A DNA stretch of 64,000 nt from Escherichia phage SpoonbillGilly, in sequence record PP925828.1, one strand, 5' to 3'. Made by a program: the position numbers and the translations under genes. The number at the start of each line of letters is the position of its first letter. Position 1 is the stretch's first letter. The notes under the pieces are model-generated. The model ran no database searches. It saw only the letters and a program-made list of their open reading frames with translations, and was not told the origin of the DNA. Below, one piece after another: positions 9,257 to 12,528 of the stretch.

Positions 9257-9285
9257 TTGCTTTCGAGCTAAAACTTATGTATAAT
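9257..9285 (+). promoter_or_regulatory. T5-type early promoter (TTGCTT-17-TATAAT) with conserved leader TTTATAAATTTGAGAGGAG
   Basis: -35 TTGCTT 9257-9262, -10 TATAAT 9280-9285; leader matches the recurring motif seen at 16138-16160. Confidence 0.7.
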
Positions 9286-9313
9286 TGATTTATAAATTTG
9301 AGAGGAGAAAGCT

Positions 9314-9595
9314 ATGAGCGAATTGCTTCCGAAAGTAGATGTTTCCCATCTTGGAGAGCCTAGTGAAGAACGTAAGGCTTTAGATTGGTTGGGCGGATTT
9401 GATTATCGTCGTGTTGTTGCAACATGGGATGATAAGAAAGTTAAGAAGTTTCGGGTACATTATGTAGGTAAAGACAAGTGGCTCTGGATTGATTATGAAG
9501 AATCGAAGGGGTCTACTAAGGCTGTGAAAATTTATCGTATGTATGGATATTATTATGCTCACTGTGATAAGAATGAATTTACAGTACAGAACTAA
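9314..9595 (+). CDS. Hypothetical protein (93 aa)
   Basis: First ORF after promoter, SD GAGGAG upstream. Confidence 0.6.
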   Translation: MSELLPKVDVSHLGEPSEERKALDWLGGFDYRRVVATWDDKKVKKFRVHYVGKDKWLWIDYEESKGSTKAVKIYRMYGYYYAHCDKNEFTVQN

Positions 9596-9604
9596 GGAAC
9601 AAGA

Positions 9605-9808
9605 ATGAAAAACGTAAAACATCTTAAATATCGCTTAATTTACAACGGACGTATGGAAACAGAAGATCTAGCTCAGCTAGCGATCAATTCAGATGAAGTT
9701 ACAGTTCGTGCTTTGTCCATCGAGAAGCTGCGTGCTTCTTACGAAAATCGTATTATGGAATTGGAGGAAAAACTTTATGGACTTCTTGAATCAGAATCTA
9801 AAAAGTAA
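9605..9808 (+). CDS. Hypothetical protein (67 aa)
   Basis: ORF with AAGGAA upstream; predicted helical/coiled. Confidence 0.5.
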   Translation: MKNVKHLKYRLIYNGRMETEDLAQLAINSDEVTVRALSIEKLRASYENRIMELEEKLYGLLESESKK

Positions 9809-9971
9809 TTTAGAAAATATGCTTATGGAGCAGTGGAATGCTGGGTATAATGCTGGAGTAGCTACCTGTATTGCTGGTTTGGATATGCTTATTAAGCAAG
9901 AGAAGGTTCGCCCAGAAGAAGCAATTCTGCTCCAAAATATCATCGAAGGATTCAAGCAAGGAATTGTATAA
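9777..9971 (+). CDS. Hypothetical protein (64 aa; ORF extends upstream to 9693)
   Basis: ATG 9777 preceded by GGAGG at 9763-9767; stop overlaps the Sir2-like start (TAATG). Confidence 0.45.
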   Translation: MDFLNQNLKSNLENMLMEQWNAGYNAGVATCIAGLDMLIKQEKVRPEEAILLQNIIEGFKQGIV

Positions 9972-10846
9972 TGCGTAGACTAATCGTTGTTAGGGGTGCA
10001 GGTTTGAGTGTAGATAGTGGTGTTCGTGCTTTCCGTACTGATACTGCTAGTGGGAAATCCTTGTGGGATGAGTACGATCTAGAGGAAGTATGTAGCTTGC
10101 CTAACTTTGAAGCTGGCTTCCGTCGCTTCTGTGGTGAAGATGATCCTAACTACTTCAGTGCTCGTTTCCCTGGCATTGATGAAGATGGTAACGATCTGTA
10201 TCTCAAGACTCATGAGTTCTACAACATGCGTCGTCAGGAATTACAGACTGTTGAGCCTAACATTGCCCATCTGCGAATTGCAGAATGGTTCCAGCGTTAT
10301 GGTGCGGATAGCGTGAAGAACTTCACTACTAACGTTGATGACCTTATGGAACGTGCTGGTATCCCTCGTGATGAAATCATTCACGCTCACGGGTACTTGA
10401 AAGAGGTGATCTATCGTCAGGGTCGCAACCAAATCATCGAAGATGTTGGGTATACTGCGATTGCCCCTGAGGATTACGAATGGGTAAAACCAAACGTAAC
10501 ATTCTTTGGTGAGACGGCTCCGTGGTATATGGGTCAGATTAACCTGTTTGATACACTTACTAGCAATGATATGGTTATTGTAGTAGGTTGTAGCAACCAA
10601 GTAATCGACTTCAACTGGGAGCTATTTCCTGCTGTATGTCGTGGAACTAAGATGATGGTTGTTAACCCACAAGTTCGTTATGACGAACAGCTTGAGTATG
10701 AGAAACGTGGTGTTACTGTATGGCGTGCTGGAGCTGCCGAAGTTTTTGGTAATAAACACTTTATTGATCAAGTTGAAGCTTTTATGGAGGGAAATATTTA
10801 TGTCCCAGAAAAGCATGTGGGATCTTTTAGTATGGCCAGATGGTAG
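9971..10846 (+). CDS. Sir2-family (sirtuin-like) NAD-binding protein lacking the zinc-ribbon module
   Basis: 291 aa; GAGLSVDSGVRAFR (GAGIS..SGIPTFR), TTNVDDLMERAG (TQNIDGLHERAG), HAHG catalytic His, PNVTFFGE, VVGCSN; no CxxC pairs. Confidence 0.8.
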   Translation: MRRLIVVRGAGLSVDSGVRAFRTDTASGKSLWDEYDLEEVCSLPNFEAGFRRFCGEDDPNYFSARFPGIDEDGNDLYLKTHEFYNMRRQELQTVEPNIAHLRIAEWFQRYGADSVKNFTTNVDDLMERAGIPRDEIIHAHGYLKEVIYRQGRNQIIEDVGYTAIAPEDYEWVKPNVTFFGETAPWYMGQINLFDTLTSNDMVIVVGCSNQVIDFNWELFPAVCRGTKMMVVNPQVRYDEQLEYEKRGVTVWRAGAAEVFGNKHFIDQVEAFMEGNIYVPEKHVGSFSMARW

Positions 10847-10982
10847 TTGGTGCTACCGTTTCGAATTTGCTACTGATGACTTCTCATGGAAGAGTGATGA
10901 TTTCTGCGTTATCTATGAGGATACAGCAGAATGGAAAGAGTTCCTTATTAAGGAGGGAGAATATGGTGAAGAAGATTTTTAA
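10800..10982 (+). CDS. Hypothetical small protein (60 aa), overlapping the 3' end of the Sir2-like gene
   Basis: ATG 10800 with GGAGGG 8 nt upstream; MSQKSMWDLLVWPDGSWCYRFEF... Confidence 0.5.
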   Translation: MSQKSMWDLLVWPDGSWCYRFEFATDDFSWKSDDFCVIYEDTAEWKEFLIKEGEYGEEDF

Positions 10983-11148
10983 GGGTATCTGGAAAGGTCT
11001 AGTATGGTTTGTCAACCTAATCGGTATGATTACCATTTATTCTCTGTTCCTATCTGTTATGTGGGGTAAAGGTGAATTGAAGGTTCCAGTTCCTTTTACT
11101 GATGAAGTTAAAGTCTGGACGTGGGATGCTACTGGTGGAAATATGTAA
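10963..11148 (+). CDS. Small membrane protein (61 aa, one predicted TM helix)
   Basis: ATG 10963 preceded by AGGAGGGAG; MVKKIFKGIWKGLVWFVNLIGMITIYSLFLSVMW hydrophobic helix. Confidence 0.6.
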   Translation: MVKKIFKGIWKGLVWFVNLIGMITIYSLFLSVMWGKGELKVPVPFTDEVKVWTWDATGGNM

Positions 11149-11641
11149 TACTCCTGTGATTTTCCTGGATATTGATGGGGTGCTCAATTCGAGCATCTCT
11201 CACCATCATGCTCCAGACAGTGAAAAGCTGTTCTTTGGCAGTGATTGGGTTTATAAGCCATTACTCCAGGCTTTTCAGAACTTTCTTAAACCCTCCCCAA
11301 TAATGATTGTTGGGGTCTCTTCATGGTTTTCTGTACGAAATGAAATGGAGAACGTTCAGATTATGACCGGACTCGGTTTGATCGATCGTTTTCTTGGTAC
11401 AACAGATTTTACTGGTGGCGGTTTATCTCGTGGTAATTCTATATTACGTTTCGTAGAAAAACATAAGCTCAAGCATTGGTGCGTCCTAGATGATGCTGGT
11501 GCTATGATGTACCAATTTCCTACTGTTATTGTAAATGGCAGGACTGGAATAAACCTTCAAGATTTAAATGCTATCAGCTATATGCTGGAATTTAGTCCAG
11601 ATCTTGAAATGTGTAAGGCTCTTCAGAAACTCAAGGTGTAA
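11102..11641 (+). CDS. HAD-superfamily hydrolase-like protein (possible nucleotidase/phosphatase)
   Basis: VIFLDIDGVLN matches HAD motif I (hhhhDxDGT/V); later VLDDAG resembles motif IV; true start may be ATG 11126. Confidence 0.65.
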   Translation: MKLKSGRGMLLVEICNTPVIFLDIDGVLNSSISHHHAPDSEKLFFGSDWVYKPLLQAFQNFLKPSPIMIVGVSSWFSVRNEMENVQIMTGLGLIDRFLGTTDFTGGGLSRGNSILRFVEKHKLKHWCVLDDAGAMMYQFPTVIVNGRTGINLQDLNAISYMLEFSPDLEMCKALQKLKV

Positions 11642-11643
11642 GC

Positions 11644-12072
11644 ATGTTCAATAATATTTTCATGAAAGAGGTAAATCCTATGCTTCTCAACTTCTGGCGC
11701 TCTCTCCCTAATGGTATGTATAATGAAACCATCAATCTGCTCAAGATTTGGTGTGAGAATAACGATATCTTCTTATCCTTTAAAGGCCCGCTAGAGGAAG
11801 CTCCGTGTATTGGAGTTAGCGTGGATTTAGGGGAGGGAGTAGAAGAGATTGTAGACTGGAAAGAACTCGATGAAATGGGTCTGGTTTTTGCCTTGAATCA
11901 TAAGCTGTTTATGCCTGCAAATCACCGTCTTATTGTAAATTATCGCACTGGTGAAGCTCCTGCTTTCCAGGTAAATGAACGTGAGGGCTGGTCATATTCG
12001 CCCGAGGAAGTAAATGAGGGGATTCAGAAACTTCGTCGTTTCGGGTATATGATCCCAGGTTTAACTGCTTAA
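11644..12072 (+). CDS. Hypothetical protein, paralog A of a tandem pair (142 aa)
   Basis: Shares DWxEL(D/S)xMGL(V/I)xALN...RxxxTGE(A/S)P...(I/Y)(M/V)PGL with the adjacent gene. Confidence 0.65.
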   Translation: MFNNIFMKEVNPMLLNFWRSLPNGMYNETINLLKIWCENNDIFLSFKGPLEEAPCIGVSVDLGEGVEEIVDWKELDEMGLVFALNHKLFMPANHRLIVNYRTGEAPAFQVNEREGWSYSPEEVNEGIQKLRRFGYMIPGLTA

Positions 12073-12081
12073 GGAGGCAGA

Positions 12082-12477
12082 ATGGAACAAGTATTTTGGC
12101 GTCAGATAGATCCTAGTTTGGTAGAGCGTGCTGAGGGGCTCCTTGCACGTTGGTTGGGGGTTGACAAGGTTAGTGTAACATTTCCGTTTACTTCTGTAAC
12201 AGACCCTAGTGTAGGTGTCTTTGTGGACGAAGATGAAGATGATGGTTGGGAAGCTGACTGGAATGAATTGTCCAGCATGGGCTTGATTGTTGCCCTCAAC
12301 TTCTCTATATTCCATCCACGTGGCTTAGCCATTACACGTGACCCCGAAACTGGTGAATCCCCTTATCTTTTGCAAGTAGAAGATGATATTTGGGAGTACA
12401 CCGAAGATATTCTCGAAGAAGCTAAAGGTCAATTAAATCGCATTGGGATCTATGTCCCTGGCCTAAATGATGATTGA
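12082..12477 (+). CDS. Hypothetical protein, paralog B of a tandem pair (131 aa)
   Basis: See paralog A; SD AAGGAGG upstream of ATG 12082. Confidence 0.65.
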   Translation: MEQVFWRQIDPSLVERAEGLLARWLGVDKVSVTFPFTSVTDPSVGVFVDEDEDDGWEADWNELSSMGLIVALNFSIFHPRGLAITRDPETGESPYLLQVEDDIWEYTEDILEEAKGQLNRIGIYVPGLNDD

Positions 12478-12500
12478 TTTTCATTAGCTCAATTCTGATT

Positions 12501-12528
12501 ACCGAGTCATTTTGGCTCGGTTTTCTCT
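12501..12528 (+). terminator. Putative intrinsic terminator ending the Sir2-containing operon
   Basis: ACCGAG-tcattttgg-CTCGGT followed by TTTTCTCT. Confidence 0.5.

Follow-up and report, generated by a model that had tools for sequence, protein, structure and literature searches.

Why does a T5-like phage encode a zinc-less sirtuin and a HAD phosphatase within one tightly packed row of early genes? The question is raised by a locus in the window analysed here, i.e. the whole stretch of 64,000 nucleotides from Escherichia phage SpoonbillGilly. An earlier note had proposed nine translationally coupled genes between a single promoter and a single terminator, and the re-derived coordinates agree with this proposal, as does Salmonella phage Stitch, in which gp106-gp114 match the nine genes one to one and in the same order. 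All nine ORFs lie on the plus strand, begin with ATG and together span 9314-12477. The window belongs to an Epseptimavirus (T5-like), and the presumed phage origin holds. Its stretch 9200-12600 shares 98.4-98.9% DNA identity with published genomes of this kind. In T5-like phages (Demerecviridae) the operon is situated between nrdD and the gene of the origin-binding helicase. Hence, the locus as such is already known: its nine genes are annotated in published phages, for example as bas31_0051-0059 in the equivalent nine-gene operon of DaisyDussoix, and the association of Sir2 with a SAK-type HAD is already in print. Differences from the published T5-like counterparts (Stitch, DaisyDussoix, the T5 Sir2-like protein and the SP15 neighbourhood) are trivial; the SP15 locus lacks the membrane protein encoded by gene 6 and has a different first gene.

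Sequence and position identify the operon as an accessory early-region transcription unit of T5-like phages, and both its co-transcription and its early timing are deduced from them. Nine proteins would be produced from one mRNA by means of a single promoter, translational coupling and a single terminator. All four gene overlaps listed previously were found, namely the stop of gene 3 with the start of the Sir2 gene (TAATG at 9969-9973), genes 4/5 (10800-10846, 47 nt), genes 5/6 (10963-10982) and genes 6/7 (11102-11148, reduced to 11126-11148 if the Stitch start is used), while a fifth one between genes 2 and 3 (9777-9808, 32 nt) had been missed. A purine-rich ribosome-binding site precedes eight of the nine genes, gene 7 being the exception.

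The T5-type sigma-70 promoter region extends from 9257 to 9304 on the plus strand. Its core (9257-9285) comprises TTGCTT, a 17-nt spacer and TATAAT at 9280-9285; next come a conserved ATAAATTTGAGAG box and the gene 1 ribosome-binding site. The promoter assignment made earlier is strengthened by motif enrichment: the window contains 12 copies of TTGC-N19-TATAAT (0.32 expected), a number reached in none of 100 shuffles, and four of TATAAT-N(6-16)-TTGAGAG, which includes the downstream box (0.16 expected). No second TTGC-N19-TATAAT copy was found within the operon. The promoter at 9257-9285 was not detected by a generic sigma-70 scan, because its -35 hexamer matches in only three of six positions. 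Upstream, an intrinsic terminator closes nrdD (9222-9246, plus strand; 10-bp stem and T-run, -16.1 kcal/mol, z = -4.8), therefore the operon should be shielded from upstream read-through. The terminator postulated for the operon end holds as well, with a 9-bp stem (12501-12521) and T-run at 12501-12528 on the plus strand (-15.4 kcal/mol, z = -5.9).

Gene 4 (9971-10846) encodes 291 amino acids, eight more at the C-terminus than the published T5-like counterpart (283 aa). Judged by sequence and predicted fold, its product is a true sirtuin related to CobB and SIRT5, in which the zinc module was lost and the NAD-binding and catalytic residues were kept. It matches Pfam SIR2 with 78.3 bits (8.8e-22), its profile finds E. 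coli CobB as the closest PDB entry (1e-24), and its AlphaFold model (pLDDT 85.9) has CobB, Sir2Af and SIRT5 as top Foldseek matches (CobB: E = 5e-15, TM 0.82). The motifs GAGLS (9-13) and SGVRAFR (16-22), reported before, are present together with FYNMRR (83-88), TTNVDD (119-124) and the catalytic H140. Conservation is strict: GAG-S, FR, N121, D123, H140, the class III pair Y84-x-x-R87 and the FGE loop are invariant in an alignment of 32 clade sequences. In SIRT5 and CobB, the Y-x-x-R pocket binds an anionic group. The reported lack of zinc-ribbon cysteines proved to be a property of the clade, since C41 is the sole invariant Cys among the 32 sequences and lies outside the zinc-module position; according to alignment and model, a short Cys-free beta-hairpin replaces the module. 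Some members carry an insertion of approximately 25 residues at 50-75. Gene 4 thus shares the Rossmann fold, GAGxS, FR, NxD, the catalytic His and the Y-x-x-R anion pocket with CobB/SIRT5, but differs from them in the missing zinc cysteines, in TTN instead of TQN, in being phage-encoded and in the RNA-end enzymes that form the context of its clade. Our literature search found no experimental studies of this clade of sirtuins.

The suggested likeness to Sir2 effectors of bacterial defence turned out to be weak. Gene 4 matches none of the PADLOC defence models, no defence Sir2 effector occurs within its top 50 Foldseek fold matches, and its best relatives are the housekeeping class III sirtuins CobB/SIRT5. 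ThsA, DSR1/2, SIR2-HerA and pAgo-associated Sir2 have the Rossmann domain of the Sir2 superfamily in common with gene 4, and many defence Sir2 effectors are likewise zinc-less. However, those effectors are host-encoded, whereas gene 4 is phage-encoded and has neither a sensor domain nor a partner gene (HerA, TIR, pAgo). In these sequence features it is unlike the defence Sir2 proteins.

The second recognisable enzyme is the HAD phosphatase of gene 7, which starts at 11102 or 11126 and ends at 11641 on the plus strand; the ATG at 11102 gives 179 aa, while 11126 is annotated in Stitch. The motif I noted earlier (FLDIDGVLN) is present, and the protein matches HAD_SAK_2 (PF18143) with 71.1 bits (cut-off 27.5; 1.5e-19), a family named after RNA-repair ('Swiss-army-knife') proteins. 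All four catalytic motifs (DIDG, SSW, TGGGxxRG and DD) are kept in eight homologues. With approximately 165-179 aa there seems to be no room for a cap domain, hence length and motif spacing point to a capless enzyme, and capless HADs typically act on macromolecules.

Sir2 and HAD are, by comparative sequence evidence, the only genes of the operon that can be said to belong together. In six Demerecviridae lineages the HAD is found at most three genes from Sir2, and this in two gene orders: it lies downstream of Sir2 in Epseptimavirus and Tequintavirus, whereas Erwinia phage KEY and three metagenomic T5-like contigs have it upstream. Three other Demerecviridae lineages (Sugarland, DU_PP_V and contig L015) have Sir2 without HAD in the fetched flanks, and in general the gene content near Sir2 varies strongly within the family. 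The description of an operon built around Sir2 is therefore overstated, because only the HAD is linked to it beyond shared synteny, and DUF7415 and gene 5 are widespread without it. Outside this family, the Sir2 of the rV5-like phage JeffSchatz (45% identical) follows an RNA ligase (RNA_lig_T4_1) and cREC_REC, and the locus, which adjoins a tRNA array, also has a divergent kinase (AAA_33) and a phosphoesterase (Metallophos); this cassette occurs in contig L018 as well.

Iyer et al. (2022; PMC9503650, section 3.7.3) described the Sir2 and SAK-type HAD neighbourhood of T5-like phages with SP15 as prototype, and predicted an NAD-dependent, Tpt1/KptA-like removal of 2'-phosphates from RNA ends. 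Hence, the statement in the earlier note that the function is not deducible from sequence was too pessimistic: a specific prediction exists, and we could reproduce the gene contexts cited for it, which supports the Sir2-HAD linkage. Our best overall explanation, to which we would give a probability of roughly 40%, is an early accessory unit whose Sir2-HAD pair heals RNA ends using NAD. Its substrates would be RNAs cut by host ribotoxins, e.g. anticodon nucleases, with 2',3'-cyclic phosphates at the damaged ends. A terminal or junction RNA 2'-phosphate would attack C1'' of NAD+ with nicotinamide leaving, as with Tpt1/KptA, and the 2''-OH of ADP-ribose, activated by His140, would then attack the phosphate, giving an RNA 2'-OH and ADP-ribose 1'',2''-cyclic phosphate. 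Afterwards, the HAD may strip the remaining 3'/2' monophosphate, like the HAD domain of T4 Pnkp, or alternatively dephosphorylate the ADP-ribose phosphate by-product. Sealing would be left to a host ligase such as RtcB, since the phage has none of its own. On permissive hosts in the laboratory, the phage could grow without the module, because in DT57C an in-frame deletion joins Sir2 residues ~197-250 to HAD residues 139-179.

RNA-end healing is favoured by the rV5-like orthologues, which are embedded among RNA ligase, cREC, kinase and phosphoesterase, and the association of KptA systems with RNA ligase and phosphoesterases parallels these contexts (PMC9503650). The likeness of gene 4 to Tpt1/KptA concerns only the proposed chemistry, in which NAD+ accepts the RNA 2'-phosphate; the folds are unrelated without sequence similarity, and Pfam finds only SIR2 in gene 4. 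With T4 Pnkp-Rnl1, gene 7 would have in common a DxD-type capless HAD as end-healing enzyme. However, compared to both T4 Pnkp-Rnl1 and the rV5-like cassette, the T5-like phage would encode the healing half only. No homologue of RNA ligase, polynucleotide kinase or cREC was found in the window, nor, by BLAST with a single rV5-type query each and by annotation, in the whole genome of a relative that is 98.4% identical in the operon stretch, so sealing and kinase enzymes seem to be missing from the T5-like genomes searched. Furthermore, the partners occur separately, Sir2 in the three lineages named above and the HAD family in T4-like phages, where its contexts are uninformative. The sirtuin is also acidic (net charge about -15), and orthologues elsewhere appear among NAD-salvage and ADP-ribose genes.

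The acyl-lysine features used by CobB/SIRT5 are all kept in gene 4, and with regard to them a protein deacylase would fit equally well. As an NAD-dependent lysine deacylase (deacetylase/desuccinylase), the sirtuin could be made early and reset the acylation of proteins from either host or phage, e.g. those acting in metabolism, nucleotide synthesis or transcription, with the HAD acting independently. This doubtful but serious candidate can rely on the closest sequence and fold relatives (CobB, Sir2Af, SIRT5), on the invariant catalytic His, nicotinamide pocket (N121, D123), FGE loop and Y-x-x-R, and on hundreds of records in which the gene is annotated accordingly. A modelling study from 2016 (PMC5107563) argued that phage sirtuins without zinc might nevertheless be able to bind acetyl-lysine. 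However, gene 4 stays far below every cut-off of the NCBIfam CobB-type deacylase models (best 86.5 versus 243 bits), and the host already has CobB. Throughout the clade the hairpin takes the place of the zinc module, which in canonical sirtuins forms half of the peptide-binding cleft. Moreover, a deacylase leaves the recurrent linkage to RNA-end enzymes and HAD unexplained.

The earlier note itself had proposed an NAD/ADP-ribose-processing module. In this reading Sir2, alone or together with the HAD, would process small molecules derived from NAD+ or ADP-ribose or would ADP-ribosylate a host target, the HAD dephosphorylating its products. Such host takeover or counter-defence, e.g. by destroying or diverting immune signals made from NAD or toxic phosphates of ADP-ribose, appears unlikely to us but stays a serious rival. 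In larger phages, Sir2 orthologues do adjoin genes for NAPRTase, PRPP synthetase, NadM, Nudix and NADAR proteins; in GAP32 NadM, NadV and a Nudix protein are encoded nearby, the latter immediately downstream. The loss of the module in DT57C is also what a conditional counter-defence function would predict. But neither Macro, Nudix, NADAR nor salvage genes were found by Pfam in the T5-like operon or are annotated in the complete genome of the close relative, gene 4 lacks similarity to NADase-type defence Sir2 (PADLOC), and we know of no signal-degrading enzyme with its sirtuin fold. A split NAD-dependent DNA ligase is encoded at 18609-20559 in the window. It makes phage replication dependent on NAD, a point in favour of this reading, but NAD consumption would also compete with this ligase.

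Quite improbable is a set of nine accessory genes without relation to each other, brought under one promoter only through dense T5-like early packing, with Sir2 and HAD close by inherited synteny and local rearrangement: the variable neighbourhoods, the separate occurrence of both enzymes and the wide distribution of DUF7415 and gene 5 families in phages without this Sir2 agree with it, but two gene orders are not explained by pure inheritance of one arrangement, and Sir2 orthologues of unrelated phage families sit among other RNA-end enzymes.

Genes 1-3, 5, 6, 8 and 9 would encode co-transcribed accessory proteins without demonstrable tie to the Sir2-HAD chemistry. The basic gene 1 product (9314-9595, 93 aa, phrog_7953) has no match in Pfam or PDB, and among distant loci a homologue is found only in L017. 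Gene 2 (9605-9808, 67 aa, phrog_5236) shares 86% identity with the SP15 and DT57C copies, and gene 3 (9777-9971, 64 aa, phrog_5827) has its match in Stitch. The Trp-rich, very acidic gene 5 product (10800-10982, 60 aa, pI 4.05) is a member of a large family without annotation, characterised by WPDGxWCYR...KSDDY (118 clusters in an exhaustive search), and homologues lie immediately 3' of Sir2 in L004, L005, L014 and L015. Of the small membrane proteins suggested before, the one-TM protein of 61 aa encoded by gene 6 (10963-11148, phrog_11166) is confirmed, with a segment at residues 14-32 and a 19-residue Kyte-Doolittle maximum of 1.93; the plural is unsupported, because the other eight products lack a hydrophobic segment of transmembrane grade. 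The two downstream paralogues were recognised correctly: gene 8 (11644-12072, 142 aa; PF24187, 125.5 bits) and gene 9 (12082-12477, 131 aa) both encode DUF7415 proteins, with 31% identity (E = 1e-20). The gene 9 model shows a confident alpha/beta fold without known structural relative, and the protein is extremely acidic (pI 4.05, net charge -20).

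Nine genes on the plus strand fill the operon at 9257-12528, and they and their junctions match the description in the earlier note with one correction: the four gene overlaps listed there are present, but that between genes 2 and 3 (9777-9808) had been missed, which brings the total to five. The gaps between the non-overlapping genes measure 9, 2 and 9 nt, and a purine-rich ribosome-binding site precedes every gene except gene 7. The promoter at 9257-9285 (TTGCTT and TATAAT, 17 nt apart), rightly read as T5-type, represents a recurrent motif of the window, in which TTGC-N19-TATAAT occurs 12 times compared to 0.32 expected, and the box after the promoter (TATAAT, 6-16 nt, TTGAGAG) four times compared to 0.16 expected. 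This enrichment of motif and box identifies 9257-9285 as a recurrent phage promoter type and excludes a chance match; a generic sigma-70 scan misses it because its -35 hexamer is weak. No second copy of the T5-type promoter exists within 9257-12528, and the internal promoter-like matches of the generic scan are not above chance (14 vs. 16.1 expected). The operon had been described as closed by a terminator, and indeed, among the terminator candidates of the region, the two flanking hairpins rank highest (-16.1 and -15.4 kcal/mol; z = -4.8 and -5.9, respectively). Hence, there is one promoter upstream, one terminator downstream and no signal in between, and from the sequence and the map position we infer that the nine genes are probably co-transcribed and expressed early. 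Rfam gave no match over 9000-13300, and a tRNA scan of the whole window found none. Elsewhere in the window, promoter TTGCTTTTAGGAAAATTTTTCTGTATAATAGATTCATAAATTTGAGAG at 16109-16156 is near-identical to what we take to be the classical strong T5 promoter of expression vectors.

For a T5-like phage, the operon is an ordinary locus, with existing annotations in hundreds of genomes. Along its whole length, the stretch 9200-12600 shares 98.9% identity with Salmonella phage vB_SenS_UTK0010, and many other T5-like phages (Stitch, 3-29, DaisyDussoix) reach 98.4-98.8%; altogether 442 phage records match it, and 188 of them cover most of it. In Stitch, an Epseptimavirus (Demerecviridae, Markadamsvirinae), the same nine genes are annotated as gp106-gp114 between nrdD, encoding the anaerobic ribonucleotide reductase, and the gene for the replication-origin-binding helicase; in the window, these neighbors lie at 7341-9215 and from 13094 onwards. 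The mechanically called open reading frame of the helicase begins at 12971, and the start used in the relatives is equivalent to 13094, where the homology begins. In several GenBank entries, the sirtuin is called "tail assembly protein", and DUF7415 proteins go by "tail tube protein", "exonuclease" or "MazG-like"; none of these names is backed by sequence, family or fold searches.

Gene 4 (9971-10846) encodes a sirtuin: its Pfam SIR2 (PF02146) score is 78.3 bits (cut-off 24; E = 8.8e-22), and a PHROG with Sir2 annotation is matched at 1e-105. In Foldseek, its AlphaFold model (pLDDT 85.9) is closest to CobB (6rxq/1s5p, E ~5e-15, target-normalised TM 0.82), followed by Sir2Af and SIRT5, and a profile built from 32 clade members likewise retrieves E. 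coli CobB first from the PDB (1e-24), then archaeal Sir2 proteins and SIRT5. All 32 members share G9, A10, G11, S13, S16, G17, F21, R22, N121, D123 and H140, which comprise the NAD-binding glycine loop, F21-R22, the nicotinamide pocket (N121/D123) and the catalytic histidine H140; in gene 4, Thr replaces the usual Gln before the Asn (TTNVDD). The class III motif for anionic acyl groups, Y-x-x-R, is invariant in the clade as well (Y84/R87 in FYNMRR) and aligns to FYNARR of CobB. The four-cysteine zinc module is missing: none of the 32 sequences has a Cys between H140 and the FGE loop, the sole invariant Cys of the clade is C41, and the Cys-containing segment of CobB aligns with Cys-free sequence in the clade profile. 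According to the alignment and the AlphaFold model, a short beta-hairpin stands in place of the zinc ribbon. Since the position of the zinc ribbon is Cys-free across the clade, the term zinc-less Sir2, coined for this single protein in the earlier note, is correct clade-wide. Zinc-less sirtuins of Vibrio phages were noted in 2016, and the T5 homologue was mentioned there (PMC5107563). The gene of the window reads eight codons longer (GSFSMARW, 10822-10846) than that of most relatives, i.e. 291 instead of 283 amino acids, so that it overlaps gene 5 by 47 nt and not by 23; the long form also occurs in UTK0010.

The suggested analogy to the Sir2 proteins of bacterial defence systems (Thoeris ThsA, DSR, SIR2-HerA, pAgo-Sir2) did not survive. 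The PADLOC defence models gave no match to gene 4 at E <= 0.1, and no defence Sir2 appears among the top 50 Foldseek matches of its model, the fold being that of the housekeeping sirtuins CobB and SIRT5; on these two results, a defence-type Sir2 is rejected. Moreover, partner or sensor genes for HerA, TIR or pAgo are absent among the nine operon genes.

Gene 7 (11102-11641) had been recognized by eye as a HAD protein, which is borne out by its match to Pfam HAD_SAK_2 (PF18143; 71.1 bits, cut-off 27.5, E = 1.5e-19, profile positions 1-138 of 139) and by the four HAD catalytic motifs, FLDIDGVLN with the DxD nucleophile, SSW, TGGGxxRG and V-x-DD, which are kept in 8 homologues. Judged from its length (about 165 residues) and motif spacing, the protein seems too short for a cap domain. 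HADs that lack a cap, for example the phosphatase domain of T4 Pnkp, usually have the ends of macromolecules as their substrates. Pfam describes the family as "HAD domain in Swiss Army Knife RNA repair proteins", and from this description and the analysis of Iyer et al. (2022; PMC9503650) an activity as RNA-terminal-phosphate phosphatase can be predicted. No solved structure related by sequence to gene 7 was detectable, and the context of the HAD gene in the T4-like phages Morganella MP1 and Aeromonas Aes012 was not informative. The family phrog_18062 carries the label "Sir2 (NAD-dependent deacetylase)", yet its match to the HAD protein is confined to residues 88-179, the C-terminal half. For the HAD gene, the Sir2 label is an error, and this is the probable reason for the two "Sir2" genes that many RefSeq records show at this locus; the label likely stems from the chimeric Sir2-HAD deletion remnant of DT57C-like phages. 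The places concerned are 11102-11641 in the window and 3468-3740 of the locus L021.

The combination of sirtuin and HAD has been published before. Iyer, Burroughs, Anantharaman and Aravind (Viruses, 2022; PMC9503650, section 3.7.3) defined a distinct clade of phage sirtuins with three conserved neighborhoods: in jumbo phages the sirtuin occurs with 2H, Nudix, cREC and PIN proteins, in rV5-like phages with a T4-like RNA ligase, cREC, a kinase, MazG and a calcineurin-like phosphoesterase, and in T5-like phages with the SAK-type HAD. They proposed that the sirtuin acts KptA-like, i.e. uses NAD+ in the removal of 2'-phosphates from RNA. Neither an experimental test of this proposal nor any further functional work on the T5 sirtuin was found in the searchable literature. 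The likeness is one of predicted chemistry and not of family membership: gene 4 has no KptA/Tpt1 fold homology, and SIR2 is its only Pfam family match. The loci of relatives agree with the published neighborhoods. In the rV5-like phage JeffSchatz, an RNA_lig_T4_1 ligase and a cREC_REC protein are encoded just before the sirtuin orthologue (45% identity), with a P-loop kinase and a metallophosphoesterase encoded divergently beside a tRNA array, and a metagenomic contig (L018) carries the same RNA-end cassette.

We assign a probability of about 0.4 to a KptA-like, NAD-dependent removal of RNA 2'-phosphates by the sirtuin. The more complete scheme is a tentative one, which we would rather doubt than accept as a whole: a zinc-less sirtuin derived from CobB would serve as RNA 2'-phosphotransferase with NAD+ as phosphate acceptor, convergent with Tpt1/KptA, and with the capless HAD as its partner it would enable T5-like phages to heal tRNA or mRNA that host ribotoxins have cleaved. 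The phage would encode only the healing of the ends, since no RNA ligase, polynucleotide kinase or cREC is detectable, and the sealing would fall to a host enzyme. The respective searches used the rV5 RNA ligase, cREC, kinase and phosphoesterase as queries, one each, which found nothing in the window; in the complete genome of DaisyDussoix, whose copy of 9200-12600 is 98.4% identical, they found only a known Ser/Thr-type metallophosphatase elsewhere. The annotation of DaisyDussoix also includes no RNA ligase, kinase or cREC; it lists about 25 tRNA genes, along with a split NAD-dependent DNA ligase. A complete heal-and-seal repair of the T4 Pnkp/Rnl1 type in the T5-like genome is therefore rejected, as RNA ligase and 5'-kinase were not found with these single queries or in the annotation. 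These absences, the acidic character of the sirtuin and its retained deacylase features limit our confidence in the KptA-like mechanism to the value stated.

Among the other explanations, a CobB-like protein deacylase comes first, as the sirtuin keeps every feature that such an enzyme would need. Gene 4 scores far under all NCBIfam cut-offs for CobB-type deacylases (86.5 bits vs. 243 for the subfamily model NF001753; 70.7 vs. 320 for the equivalog NF040867, prot_deacyl_CobB), and we regard this function as unlikely. Somewhat more improbable is the idea of the earlier note that the Sir2 and the phosphatase process NAD or ADP-ribose for host takeover or counter-defence. NAD-salvage and ADP-ribose genes do occur near sirtuin orthologues in other large phages: NAPRTase, PRPP synthetase, MazG and NADAR in the locus L013, PRPP synthetase and NADAR also on the contig L018 with its RNA-end cassette, and NadM, NadV and a Nudix protein in phage GAP32. 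In the window itself, an NAD-dependent DNA ligase is split into genes for A and B subunits (18609-19577 and 19783-20559), about 8 kb downstream of the operon; thus, phage replication draws on the NAD+ pool that the sirtuin would consume. A PhoH-family gene lies near the sirtuin in unrelated phages, namely in the order Sir2, Nudix, small gene, PhoH in the jumbo phage GAP32 (L020, 4968-8485), and divergently just upstream of nrdD and Sir2 in T5-like phages (6239-6988 in the window).

In the Demerecviridae examined, the sirtuin is always located between nrdD or PhoH and the origin-binding gene, and the HAD gene occurs in two arrangements, two genes downstream of the sirtuin in Epseptimavirus and Tequintavirus and one gene upstream in Erwinia phage KEY and three metagenomic contigs. 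It is absent from the fetched sirtuin flanks of Sugarland, DU_PP_V and a further contig (L015). A lack of any functional coupling among the operon genes is the least probable of the explanations. The viable and well-studied T5 relative DT57C has a 90-residue chimeric ORF annotated as "Sir2-like (defective)", which joins sirtuin residues ~197-250 to HAD residues 139-179; a single deletion thus took out gene 5 and the larger parts of both the sirtuin and the HAD. The viability of DT57C with this deletion implies that the Sir2-HAD module is not needed on permissive hosts, as would be expected for a conditional function, for example in counter-defence. In Eps7, the matching sirtuin is in two pieces, and Shivani has only part of the HAD.

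The two paralogous downstream proteins of the earlier note are encoded by genes 8 (11644-12072) and 9 (12082-12477), which share 31% identity (E = 1e-20) and belong to DUF7415 (PF24187; 125.5 and 98.2 bits, cut-off 27). The alpha/beta model of gene 9 (pLDDT 94.4; net charge about -20) returned only DUF7415 proteins from BFVD, and a DUF7415 profile search of the PDB was empty; as far as models go, DUF7415 is a fold orphan. Its genes are found in five Demerecviridae lineages, and its core is common among phages without this sirtuin, T4-like and even P2-like ones. Gene 5 (10800-10982; 60 aa, pI 4.05) belongs to a large family of proteins of about 50 residues without a Pfam model, with the motif (D/E)D-I-F-V-W-P-D-G-x-W-C-Y-R ... 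K-S-D-D-Y. Its 118 clusters at 50% identity are mostly stand-alone; some members are tandem duplications, one is attached to the C-terminal end of an Xre-type HTH protein, and no fusion with Sir2 was seen. Gene 5 was considered as a dedicated partner of Sir2: a homologue directly follows the sirtuin in five Demerecviridae lineages, and in KEY and DU_PP_V this place is taken by small hydrophobic peptides unrelated to gene 5. A possible role of the acidic co-transcribed proteins, gene 5 and the two DUF7415 members, would be the inhibition of host defence proteins. The one-TM protein of gene 6 (10963-11148) was correctly predicted, but small membrane proteins in the plural were not, because it contains the sole TM segment among the nine products. 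Genes 1-3 gave no informative family matches, and gene 1 only chance-level matches in the PDB.

T5-like phages have long served as a classic model, and therapeutic and reference collections often contain them. The Sir2-HAD pair and its mechanistic hypothesis date from 2022; new here are the quantitative check of promoter and terminator, the class III affinity with its invariant anion pocket, the two Sir2-HAD gene orders, the absence of the ligase, the deletion in DT57C and the orphan fold of DUF7415. Should the sirtuin indeed use NAD+ to take 2'-phosphates off RNA, the family would gain a new chemistry and its first member with demonstrated activity on RNA, phage counter-defence would gain a new type, and an RNA-healing route would join the known phage escapes from anticodon nucleases. 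If it is a deacylase or NAD/ADP-ribose processor, it would bear on how a phage with an NAD+-dependent ligase manages the NAD pool of its host. A conserved early module with two small soluble enzymes and the natural deletion phage DT57C make the question approachable.

A stretch of 616 nt (12478-13093), which separates the operon terminator from the gene of the origin-binding helicase, carries no annotated gene and matches nothing in Rfam. It contains another promoter of the T5 type (12569-12597; TTGAGAG box, 12610-12616), followed almost immediately by a hairpin with a T-run (12612-12650; -11.5 kcal/mol, z = -4.5), which is annotated as terminator in Stitch, and a 21-nt inverted repeat (12703-12723/13011-13031). 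It could represent a short non-coding transcript, an attenuator or a part of the replication origin adjoining the gene of its binding protein. In SP15, an HNH endonuclease gene is inserted at the equivalent position.
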